Part shown: positions 60,301-64,000 of the stretch, one piece after another
Layout of the letters: the number at the start of each line of letters is the position of its first letter
Position numbering within the stretch: position 1 is the stretch's first letter
NCBI RefSeq assembly: GCF_041886205.1
Contig: NZ_CP169029.1
Reading direction: 5' to 3' (one strand)
Source of the DNA: Escherichia coli
GTDB lineage: Bacteria > Pseudomonadota > Gammaproteobacteria > Enterobacterales > Enterobacteriaceae
Length of the DNA stretch: 64,000 nucleotides
Made by a program: the position numbers

Positions 60301-63300
60301 GGCAAGACGGGTTTTATCTTTGGAAGAACCTTGAGATTCAGCACGGTTGCCTTTGAAGTCATATTCCCACTGACCGAAACCAGTCAGTTGATCGTTGATT
60401 TGGGTTTCACCTTTAAAGCCCAGACGAGCATAAGTAGTGTCACCATCATCTGCATCGTTAGAGGAGAAGTAGTGCTTAGCATTAACTTTTCCGTACAGAT
60501 CCAGTTTGTTACCGTCTTTGTTATAGATTTCTGCAGCTTGAGCAGACACTGCCATCAGAACAGATGCTGCAACCACAGAAAGTGCCACTGTAATTTTTTT
60601 CATTTTTTTTGCCTTTAAAGTTGAACTTTTCAATAGAAAAGAAGTCACTCCGAATAAATATCTATAATTTTTGTATTTAAGTTTCAAGTTTTGCACATTA
60701 GTATTGAGATATTTTTGTGATTAAAATCACAAAAATATCACCATAAAACCAATGGATTATTAGAAAAGAATTAATTCAGTGAATAACAACTCGAGTAGGC
60801 AGCTTGGCGCTACGACTTATCATGGTCTGTAATTACCTTTATAAAACAAACAATGTTATTGCTTTCAGTTGGTTATATGGCACGTTCAGCTCAACCCCGT
60901 AAACACAAACCATCTCCACAGAGAAGTCAACTTCCCCACTATGTCGCAAAACTTCACGAAGATGATTTTTTGACGAAGAAGAGACCGAAGTGCATCGCTT
61001 TGATAATTTTGATGGTGCGGTGGCGTATTACACAAACCTGAATATTTCGTTCTTTGTGGATACCGGAAACAAAAAGTGGGTCTTCTGGTTTGTCCGTGTC
61101 GATGACGAGGGTTATCTAGAGACAACCTGATGTGAGGAGCGGTAATTCTCGACTATTCTTGCAGCTATCACTGCCAGTGGCATGTGCAGCCCAAACAGCG
61201 GTACGGTTCACTGACCGGACAGTGTAACCCCGATATTCAGAGACTTCCCCGTTTTGCCGATATTTTTCAGCAGGGGATCCGCTGGATTAACTGGTTGAAT
61301 AAACAGCCAGAAGCTTCTGTGTGTCCGGTGATGATTGCGTATTCCGCTCTATTCGATCACGGATTGGCATCAAAGTCCGATCAGCGATTCGCATCCATTC
61401 GATTAACCGAAAACTTAACTTTTTCTATCGCTTTTCAACTCGTTTTTTCGGTGTTTTCCATTGACGGGGGATTTTTCCTCAGGGACTCTCCCTGAAGGAC
61501 CAGTCTGTGTGAGTTATGTACCAGTCTGTCCAAGATGGCATATGCTGTTGTTGGGTTCACTATAAGAACATACCATTTATCTACCGGGAACTGGCTTACC
61601 GCTATTGTGCTACCTTGCCCGTAACGATCTTCTGTGATCGCCAGGAGGTCATGACACTGGGAATTACTTAACTGTTTAACTATTTAAGCCCCAGATCGTC
61701 TAGGATTAGAACCTGTATTTTTCTGTTTCAGATATTTTAGCCAGCTACCATCAACACGTCCCTGAGCCCGCTGTTCCAGTAACCGCCCGGTTCTACAGTA
61801 CCGGACGCTGTGTTTCTGTCGACATACCTGTTCGCCCGGCACATTGGCTATCCAGCTATTGCCGCATCCTGTAGGCTCCGTTATCAGCAGGTTTTTCTTG
61901 TGGATTATGTAATGACCGTTCAGCAGTTCCCTCATCTATTCAGCTCCCAGGCCTCTTGAAGCCGGATAACGCAGTCCTTCCGCTGTTACCTGATATTTCA
62001 GGCCGGTATTTTCTCTCAACTGTACCACTCGACTAGTTTCCCTGCTCAGGAGTTCGTCATCAACCAGCAGCGTCAGTCTCTCCTAGAGCGACAGTTCGCC
62101 GTCGGTCCGGAGGGGGGGCCAGCTGTCGTATCAGGCTCCCAGCTAGATAATATTTTTATTCTATCCTAGCGTGACCACCCGTTTTTTCTGCCCGCGCAAT
62201 TGCCAATCCGTACTGATTTTGAGATGAAGATGGATATCCACTTCATCTTGATGCTCTGTGCTGCATTCGTCCAGTGCTTTATGGATTGCTTTCTGCATCA
62301 GGCATCGTGCGTCACGGGAAATTGGTGCTATGACAGGCAATTGCTCAGTCCGGTTGGTGATTTGTTTTAATTTGGCGATTGATCAGATCGCACAATTCGG
62401 GCTAAGCTCCCTCAAAGGGAGCTACTATTCTGCGCAACTATATAGTATAGTACCAGCCGACGAGGGATATTTAAGGCAAGTTAACATTGTAACCAGAGCT
62501 GTATGGAGAAACTGTTGTCCCACTCTCCCCAGATATGTGCACGACGAAGGCCAGCACTAAGAAAAATAACATGTTGTCGGCGAATATACTCTATCAAAGA
62601 TTATTCTCCTCATCCTGAAAAATAAGGTTTTGTAGCGCCTTTGATAACATCAATTACCTGAACTTTTTATGCCCTTCTATTCTTATTTTATGCATTTTCA
62701 TTACCGAGTTTGGAACATCTGAAATATCACCTGATACTACTTTTTCTTTTGCCTTAACAATTTCATTATTTAGTTTCATTAGCTCATTTTTATACTCACC
62801 CCCACCTTTCTTATCATCATGGGAAATCTTTTCAGGAAGTGATTTCATTGAGTCATTAACAGCGAGCTCCATAATTTCAAGAGCATCAATCATCTCTTTT
62901 TTATTCGTTGACGACTGTAAAATACCAATATTATCAGCGAGTATCTGCATATTTTCACCAAGCTCTTTTGCAGAAGATATATTTCCACCCCCAAAATATA
63001 ATAATAAGGTACTACAAATTGTTAAACATTTTACTTTTTCCATATTCTATCCTTACAGGGGGAGACTCCCCCTGTGATATATTATTTTTTAGATAAATCA
63101 AATCGGTCATTATTCATGACTTTATTCCAAGCATTAGCAAAATCATGAATAAACTTATCTTGAGCATCATCTGACGCGTAAACTTCAGCTACAGCCCGTA
63201 ATTCAGGATTTGAACTGAATATTAAATCTACAGAGGAAGCTTTCCATTTAAGAGTACCGCTCTTACGGTCATATCCATTATAGACATCCTCATCTTTATC

Positions 63301-64000
63301 TGATTTGCTCCAGTAGGTTCCCATATCCAGAAGATTCACAAAAAAATGATTATTCAGCGTACCCGGAGTCTCAGTAAATACCCCGAGAGAAGAATGATTA
63401 GTATTAATATCCATAACACGCAATCCACCTAACAGCACTGTCATTTCTGGAACAGTTAGATCAAGTTTACTCGCTTTATCAATCAGACTTTCAACAGGTG
63501 AAGTATGGTTCCTGTTTTTTGCATAATAGTTTCTGAAGCCATCTGCAGTAGGCTCCAGAAAACTGAATGATGTAATATCTGTCTGTTCCTGAGAAGCATC
63601 AGTTCTTCCTGGTTTGAATGGGATTTCTAGTTTTACACCTGCTTTAGCAGCTGATTCTTCGATAGCAGTATTACCCGCCAGTACAATTAAATCAGATAGT
63701 GAGACTTTCTTCCCATTAGACTGCTTTTTATTAAATTCTGACTGTAATGAAACCAGGGATGTCAACACCGTTTTCAAATTTTCAGGTTCATTGACTTCCC
63801 AATTTTTTTCTGGCAGCAAGCGGATACGGGCACCATTATTTCCTCCTCGATAATCAGTTACACGAAATGTCGAGGCTGAAGCCCAAGCAGTTTTTATCAG
63901 ATCAGAGGACGGAATTCCTGACTTAATGATCTGCATCTTGAGGGATTTTATATCCTGACTATCGATCATAGTGTAATCAGCAGCAGGAAGTGGATCCTGC

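Follow-up and report, generated by a model that had tools for sequence, protein, structure and literature searches.

The two genes and their products

The locus described here lies at the far end of a 64,000-nucleotide stretch of Escherichia coli DNA (contig NZ_CP169029.1; this whole stretch is called the window below) and consists of two neighboring genes, both on the minus strand, that are located in horizontally acquired DNA. The first is the 3' part of a gene for a KatP-type catalase-peroxidase (63082-64000), whose stop codon occupies 63082-63084 and whose reading frame stays open to the window edge; the 919 nt up to position 64000 are uninterrupted and give 305 codons (433-737), i.e. the C-terminal 41% of a gene of 737 codons. 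The second, directly downstream, encodes from an ATG start a 129-residue protein of the cytochrome b562 family (62654-63043; Pfam PF07361). Exactly 38 nt separate the two (63044-63081), and this spacer holds a perfect GC-rich palindrome, ACAGGGGGAG-A-CTCCCCCTGT (63055-63075, minus strand), that stands in gene direction directly before the Shine-Dalgarno sequence AAGGA of the b562-like gene (63050-63054, minus strand, by direct reading of the sequence), with a 6-nt gap to the ATG. A first-pass annotation of the window had reported the 38-bp spacing on a common strand, without stating which, and a perfect palindrome just ahead of the ribosome-binding site, and both are as it described.

Between 62400 and 64000 the window and the JML285 chromosome of E. 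coli are 100% identical, and apart from JML285 none of 5,426 complete E. coli genomes matches this 1.6 kb at >80% identity. The enzyme sequence upstream of codon 433 was read from two proxies, JML285 (L001) and an independent assembly (L007), in both of which the gene is intact at 737 aa and is followed by the partner gene in the same neighborhood; in JML285 it occupies L001:20683-22896, and its C-terminus is identical to the part in the window. The upstream disruption that the first-pass annotation had considered is thus absent from both proxies. Island-type enzyme and partner occur on >300 contigs in a large protein collection, so that this lineage is to be regarded as uncommon among finished genomes and not as unique.

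Residues 24-736 of the JML285 protein match the models TIGR00198 (1068 bits, cut-off 770) and NF011635 (1205 bits, cut-off 981). The catalytic residues R99, W102, H103, Y223, M251, H264, W316 and D375 all occur within conserved motifs and make up the distal Arg/Trp/His set, the proximal His/Trp/Asp set and the Met-Tyr-Trp adduct; each of them lies in the proxy sequence and outside the window. The protein begins with a predicted Sec-type leader, MIKRTLPILILLTLSGSLSPAVA, followed by ND, which has n-, h- and c-regions, aligns with the leader of KatP and contains no twin-arginine motif; the core E. coli KatG is without such a leader. The first-pass annotation had posed the signal peptide and the comparison with KatP and KatG as questions for the full-length gene; the identity of the enzyme is 87% with plasmid KatP against 55% with core KatG. 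The closest protein clusters (85-89%) are from E. coli, Raoultella planticola and Citrobacter braakii, with the KatP cluster at 88%, and identity falls to 75% with Yersinia KatY, 72% with Salmonella proteins and 69-70% with Burkholderia proteins. Core katG (metF-katG-yijE) is found in 5425 of 5426 complete E. coli genomes, and JML285 has the core and the island copies, which bears out the earlier statement that the core gene lies elsewhere. The enzyme is thus, to judge from its sequence, a second, accessory catalase-peroxidase of KatP type.

The partner protein matches the Pfam family PF07361 (Cytochrom_B562) over the full model with an E value of 8.3e-15. Its score with the NCBIfam CybC equivalog NF011632 is 70.2 bits, under the cut-off of 130 (Yersinia CybC reaches 159 bits), and the island protein is therefore assigned as a member of the b562 family and not as a CybC orthologue. 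Residues 1-25, MEKVKCLTICSTLLLYFGGGNISSA (62969-63043, minus strand), are a predicted Sec signal peptide with cleavage after SSA; it aligns with the 22-23-residue cytochrome b562 leader of E. coli and Salmonella. A lipoprotein reading of the same leader (LTIC) was rejected, since Ile precedes the Cys rather than Gly, Ala or Ser. The axial haem ligands are Met32 (codon at 62948-62950, minus strand), which is Met7 of the predicted mature protein as in E. coli cytochrome b562, and His125 (codon at 62669-62671, minus strand), which corresponds to His102 of the E. coli protein. Neither varies among eight aligned members of the family, and against the solved b562 chains ENM aligns with DNM (Met7) and GHKKFR with YHKKYR (His102). 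The AlphaFold2 model is a four-helix bundle (predicted local distance difference test score, pLDDT, of 80) with a disordered leader, residues 1-19 being of low confidence and the first helix starting from residue 21; its best Foldseek match is Salmonella cytochrome b562 4er9, with a template modeling (TM) score of 0.86 and a root-mean-square deviation of 2.3 Å, and the top matches are b562 structures. Sequence and predicted fold together point to a secreted cytochrome b562-family haem protein, as the first-pass annotation had proposed, and the heme-ligating Met and His for whose loss it had allowed are in place.

CybC of E. coli and Salmonella belongs to the same Pfam family and has the four-helix bundle, the equivalent Met/His ligands and a cleavable leader in common with the island protein; however, the two are ~24-27% identical, the island mature form is two residues shorter, and core cybC has no catalase gene beside it. 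A word-index protein search with the b562-like protein returned its own cluster only, and an exhaustive one 13 representatives. Relatives are also seen on plasmids of other types: a gene on a ColV plasmid of avian pathogenic E. coli (L006 6001-6390), 43% identical to the island protein, stands next to a LysR regulator, and one on an F-type plasmid contig (L013 6001-6384), 30% identical, lies in the conjugative leading region between an SLT transglycosylase gene and psiA/psiB.

Co-inheritance of the pair

The two genes are found together well beyond the island. In pO157 of strain Sakai katP is followed 46 nt on by a b562-like open reading frame, and here as well as in pMRY16-002_1 the pair is bracketed by insertion sequence (IS) elements; a tblastn search gave 582 plasmids with the b562-like gene and 486 with KatP at 80-90% identity. 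The resemblance to plasmid katP is therefore closer than the first-pass annotation had noted, since pO157 and several hundred plasmids carry the same pair with a hairpin in the same place. The pair order is also kept in a Raoultella-type lineage, in a third E. coli lineage (L008), in Salmonella (L100), in a Citrobacter/Salmonella lineage (L012) where the pair adjoins type III secretion genes, and in Yersinia, where cytochrome b561 is encoded by a third gene. The partner lies directly downstream on the same strand in seven lineages, and AAGGAG or AGGAGG is the equivalent ribosome-binding site in the plasmid and other lineages.

Homology between island and plasmid starts ~67-110 nt upstream of the enzyme ATG and stops exactly at the partner stop codon. 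Within this block the synonymous divergence (dS) between island and plasmid is the same for enzyme (1.575) and partner (1.572), which indicates that the pair has traveled together since a deep split. The enzyme has a ratio of nonsynonymous to synonymous divergence (dN/dS) of 0.047, and the partner, which is 53% identical between the island and pO157 types, one of 0.227; by this measure both genes appear to be under purifying selection, with the partner less constrained. At least seven enterobacterial lineages have inherited the pair as a single block, and from the sequence comparisons the identity of both genes together with their co-inheritance can be put forward with high confidence.

The pO157 locus (katP and L7018) has the gene order, the strand relation and the short spacer with hairpin and then ribosome-binding site of the island locus, a predicted leader of the same type, an OxyR-box-like element equally far upstream and IS elements at the flanks of the block. 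The island copy differs in being chromosomal and not on a plasmid, in a DNA identity to the pO157 type of 74-78%, in the sequence of its hairpin, in being more AT-rich (GC content at third codon positions of 33.5% and 25% against 40% and 37%), and in the RefSeq name of its enzyme, which is HPI and not KatP. In the 1998 record of pO157 Sakai, codon 16 of the b562-like gene (L004 6001-6390; AB011549.2 79142-79531), which falls within the leader, is an in-frame stop, and the annotation begins at an internal start. The 129-codon gene is intact on other plasmids of the pO157 type, and the stop reflects either an error of sequencing or a knock-out specific to this strain.

The katY-cybC-cybB locus of Yersinia pestis and Y. 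pseudotuberculosis likewise has a leader-bearing catalase-peroxidase (75% identity) and then a cytochrome b562, with a spacer hairpin and an OxyR-like box. Unlike the island pair, which has no b561 gene downstream, it has cytochrome b561 as its third gene, its partner is a true CybC orthologue, only ~31% identical to the island partner, and it is core chromosomal. The reported RNA thermometer of katY has no evident counterpart in the island copy, the 5' untranslated region of which contains no structure like it (z = +1.2). The KatY leader is processed (PMC10358904), and katY-cybC-cybB of Y. pestis has been shown by reverse-transcription PCR to form one transcript (PMC2231364). The proteins of the pair are already annotated by RefSeq in JML285, and with a proven operon in Yersinia the pairing is therefore not new in kind: the locus is a chromosomal representative of the known katP/katY plus cytochrome b562 unit, diverged and richer in AT.

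As RNA the palindrome of the spacer gives a stem of 9 bp closed by a loop of 3 nt. Spacer and flanks together fold with a minimum free energy of -18.7 kcal/mol (z = -2.4), and a perfect stem of the island length arises in 3 of 5000 shuffles of the spacer. Since ~9 similar palindromes occur elsewhere in the 64-kb window, the palindrome by itself is not unique, and it is its position and conservation that carry weight. A stable hairpin is found 3' of the enzyme stop codon in seven of the nine lineages examined, with z-scores of -2.2 to -5.1 across the seven. Four of these are perfect stems of 9-11 bp that differ in sequence, with arms ACAGGGGGA / UCCCCCUGU in the island, AUGAGGGAGG / CCUCCCUCAU in pO157, UUUCCGGGGGA / UCCCCCGGAAA in the Raoultella type and AUUGGGGAG / CUCCCCAAU in E. 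coli L008, each arising in 0-3 of 5000 shuffles of its own spacer; the stems of Yersinia, Burkholderia ambifaria and Trinickia are longer and imperfect. The outer base pairs vary between lineages yet stay complementary, as read off the per-lineage folds, and such changes point to selection on the structure. Neither the spacer hairpin nor the 5' region has a match in Rfam. In the core part of the window, at 6374-6396, another perfect 9-bp palindrome has a similar G-rich arm, AGGGGGAGA, and a 5-nt loop.

In five lineages the region upstream of the enzyme gene contains, at -98 to -100 from the ATG, a match to the OxyR consensus. Of 20 consensus positions, 15 are matched in the island, 15 in pO157, 17 in pMRY16, 14 in the Raoultella type and 17 in Yersinia, and such scores are reached by 0-51 of 1000 shuffles over the five lineages (20 of 1000 for the island, and 0-20 over island, pMRY16 and Yersinia), these being consensus counts and not the output of a calibrated model. 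The expression of katP in O157 is OxyR-dependent. The Yersinia enzyme is also under OxyR control (PMC8139631).

The b562 protein as a possible electron donor

The arrangement suggests a path by which electrons might reach the enzyme. OxyR would induce one transcript of enzyme and partner, and the hairpin, having no U-tract, would act on it as a leaky barrier or 3'-end stabilizer, so that more enzyme than partner would be made. Reduced b562 protein in the periplasm would then donate electrons one at a time to the oxidised haem intermediates of KatP, driving its peroxidase cycle and/or rescuing catalase-inactive intermediates, and would itself be re-reduced from the quinol pool via membrane cytochrome b561, which would be encoded in the operon in Yersinia and by the host chromosome in E. 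coli. The potential of cytochrome b562, ~+0.18 V, is far under that of peroxidase compounds I and II, and peroxidatic donors rescue catalase-inactive KatG intermediates. The same working principle, i.e. the reduction of periplasmic H2O2 with respiratory-chain electrons via a small soluble carrier, is that of the di-haem cytochrome c peroxidases, with cytochrome c and pseudoazurin as donors, and of the quinol-linked Ccp/YhjA of E. coli. The likeness ends there: cytochrome c peroxidases are unrelated in family, having c-type haems in place of the haem b of a class I peroxidase, and KatG-type enzymes also dismutate H2O2 donor-free.

A comparison that bears on such a role comes from outside the Enterobacterales. 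In B. ambifaria and Trinickia caryophylli a leader-bearing enzyme of the KatP clade (69-71% identity) is followed 54-57 nt downstream by a pseudoazurin (134.8 bits on TIGR02375, cut-off 109.9) in place of b562. Both arrangements thus have a KatP-clade enzyme with leader, a small secreted one-electron carrier on the same strand and a hairpin in the spacer, but here the carrier is a copper protein and not a haem protein, and the host is of a different bacterial class. Bacterial cytochrome c peroxidases are known to take electrons from pseudoazurin. The donor role is favored because this copper one-electron carrier fills the b562 slot in Burkholderiaceae, because Yersinia adds the membrane cytochrome b561, which is a natural quinol link, and because the catalase activity of KatY is reported as only marginal in Y. 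pseudotuberculosis (PMC10358904).

On this comparison of relatives, the step in which b562 would donate electrons to the KatP-type enzyme is proposed tentatively, at somewhat under an even chance. The wider reading, that the locus is a horizontally mobile two-gene unit that handles H2O2 in the periplasm, with the proposed mechanism taken as a whole, is about evenly balanced between being right and wrong. More tentative than either is the generalization that the partner may be the dedicated physiological reductant of leader-bearing KatP-clade enzymes (b562 in Enterobacterales, pseudoazurin in Burkholderiaceae), and that these enzymes would work in vivo mainly as respiratory-chain-linked periplasmic peroxidases. 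The "periplasmic oxidative-stress module" of the first-pass annotation is, for this copy, suggested by the leaders and by homology; the observation on which that interpretation was built is confirmed, and the interpretation overall is supported.

A number of points weigh against the donor role. The partner evolves ~5-fold faster than the enzyme and, in the island, misses the NCBIfam cut-off for CybC. It is not obligatory, since a Klebsiella aerogenes plasmid and a Methylococcaceae contig have leader-bearing KatP-clade genes without a partner, and a b562 gene is found at 0 of 80 more distant KatG loci (58-67% identity, other phyla) among the matches listed; orphan b562-family genes without a catalase gene are present on ColV and F-type plasmids. 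The pseudoazurin case comprises two genera of one family, and a tblastn search of plasmids with the Burkholderia pseudoazurin returned only generic rhizobial pseudoazurins of <=50% identity and no further KatG-linked cases. In the literature searched, no report was found of electron transfer from b562 to KatG, of any functional link of KatG-type enzymes with b562 or pseudoazurin, or of the arrangement seen in B. ambifaria and Trinickia. Finally, the window copy is known here from sequence, and the enzyme promoter with its OxyR-like box, the leader and the catalytic half are all taken from a proxy genome, outside the window.

Among the distant KatG loci listed, the leader-bearing genes have unrelated neighbors (YceI, a VIT1-like protein) or none. 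In a metagenome-assembled genome of Obscuribacterales (L016 5001-7934), for example, the gene that lies 39 nt downstream of a leader-bearing KatG (67% identity) encodes a YceI-family periplasmic protein and not a redox carrier.

The main rival to the donor role is that the b562-like protein carries or buffers haem in the periplasm, holding haem b or delivering it to KatP exported by Sec in unfolded form. Both proteins have predicted Sec-type leaders without a twin-arginine motif and would therefore have to bind haem b in the periplasm; cytochrome b562 holds its haem non-covalently and reversibly, and is used as a haem sensor; and the two genes are tightly linked and co-inherited. The enterobacterial data are fitted equally well by this account, but the copper-protein replacement is not, since the pseudoazurin in the Burkholderiaceae slot cannot carry haem and can carry electrons. 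The membrane cytochrome b561 of Yersinia fits an electron chain, and some leader-bearing KatP-clade genes do without any partner, so that a haem carrier is considered unlikely.

It is also rather unlikely that the two genes are neighbors by descent only, with the b562-like gene hitch-hiking with katP on IS-bounded fragments in a role that is unrelated or dispensable. Such an origin would be in keeping with the lower conservation of the partner (53% against 87% identity; dN/dS 0.23 against 0.05), with the stop at codon 16 of the pO157 Sakai record, with the orphan genes on other plasmids and with the two KatP-clade lineages that lack a partner. However, the linkage has outlasted synonymous saturation (dS >1.5) and repeated relocation between plasmid and island, with homology ending exactly at the block; both genes appear to be under purifying selection and the haem ligands are invariant; the spacer hairpin has been maintained through compensatory changes; and a functional analogue, pseudoazurin, occupies the slot in Burkholderiaceae.

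A third possibility concerns the palindrome, which might be a transcription terminator, either for katP or for an antisense transcript on the opposite strand, the b562-like gene then having its own expression or none. At about -17 to -19 kcal/mol the stem is stable, and in a consensus scan the hairpin comes out as terminator-like on the plus strand only, where it has a T-rich tail, TATATTATTT. In the sense direction, though, the next bases are AAGGAUAGAAUAUG and no U-tract follows; the T-rich antisense tail is not kept in lineages L098 and L008; and a strong ribosome-binding site and an intact, selected reading frame come directly after the hairpin. The consensus scan found no convincing internal promoter or sense-strand terminator, and promoter-like sites in the region, those upstream of the b562-like gene included, are not above chance (18 found against 12.9 expected). 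In Yersinia transcription reads through the equivalent hairpin (PMC2231364), and the pO157 partner, L7018, has been detected as a protein, 6.3-fold up in the piglet gut (PMC3686733). A terminator is thus improbable, and because there is no sense U-tract and Yersinia reads through, the hairpin may rather be a leaky barrier or 3'-end stabilizer that sets the enzyme-to-partner ratio. That the pair is instead a decaying remnant, with an enzyme gene disrupted upstream of the window edge like many of its island neighbors, might be suggested by an island rich in IS elements and annotated pseudogenes (JML285) and by a window that shows 305 of 737 codons, but is highly improbable given 919 uninterrupted nt identical to JML285, where the gene is intact, an equally intact 737-aa gene with partner in L007 and island-type proteins on >300 contigs.

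The in vivo reductant for the peroxidase mode of KatG-type enzymes and the purpose of cytochrome b562 are, to our knowledge, decades-old questions. If the donor reading is true, the path would be quinol to cytochrome b561 to b562 to KatP to H2O2, and a KatG-type enzyme would then have a natural peroxidatic donor and, by the same token, the cytochrome b562 family a role in physiology; the pO157, Yersinia and island loci make both questions directly testable. What gives the comparison its interest is a partner slot that has been kept through saturating divergence and for which different bacterial families use one or the other of two unrelated one-electron carriers. With this finding the known KatP family of accessory periplasmic catalase-peroxidases also gains a diverged lineage on the chromosome; these enzymes are associated with enteric pathogens and thought to blunt host-derived peroxide. 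As such the locus is useful for cataloguing island cargo and leaves understanding unchanged, the comparative by-product being the more useful result.

Surroundings of the pair

Positions 1-36400 of the window are the core moeA-ybiW-ompX-dps-glnH region, with ~96.9% identity to the best of the 5,426 complete E. coli genomes, none of which is matched by the window as a whole; the DNA thus appears to come from a divergent Escherichia lineage outside that collection. Accessory DNA begins right after glnH with a tyrosine-recombinase reading frame (36513-37715, plus strand), in agreement with the earlier view that the pair is carried by an island. Models of defense systems have no match at the locus. 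JML285 matches only blocks of the accessory half, at 99-99.8%, its YadA/OmpA segment being missing from the window, and its related island (locus L003 10202-11635) adjoins a tRNA-Phe gene. An insertion at tRNA-Phe was considered for the island of the window and rejected, as collinearity with JML285 is only partial, the site is another one and the 64-kb window contains no tRNA gene. Related island cargo is thus present at two chromosomal sites, on the glnH side in the window and at tRNA-Phe in JML285.

Directly after the recombinase, the plus strand of the window from 38000 to 45791 carries genes that in the matching JML285 block are annotated as a response regulator, a sensor kinase, a UhpC-like major facilitator superfamily protein and a ferric-type ATP-binding cassette transporter (binding protein, permease and ATPase). 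Beyond the window edge, in JML285 and L007, an orphan gene for CdiI, a contact-dependent inhibition immunity protein, lies ~850 nt upstream of the enzyme gene (L001 23741-24001 and L007 4641-4901), and the DNA between the two is very AT-rich and without a gene call.

Downstream of the pair the window contains IS remnants, and in JML285 many IS elements and annotated pseudogenes surround it. An extra OmpC-like porin gene (59515-60603, minus strand) is found ~2 kb from the pair and is the same neighbor in JML285 and L007. Abutting the porin gene is an apparently complete IS66-family element (56640-59255, plus strand; tnpA, tnpB and a 523-aa transposase, ISCro1-like), and in JML285 a 4.6-kb segment with OmpA-family and YadA-adhesin genes sits between the IS66-family element and the porin gene.

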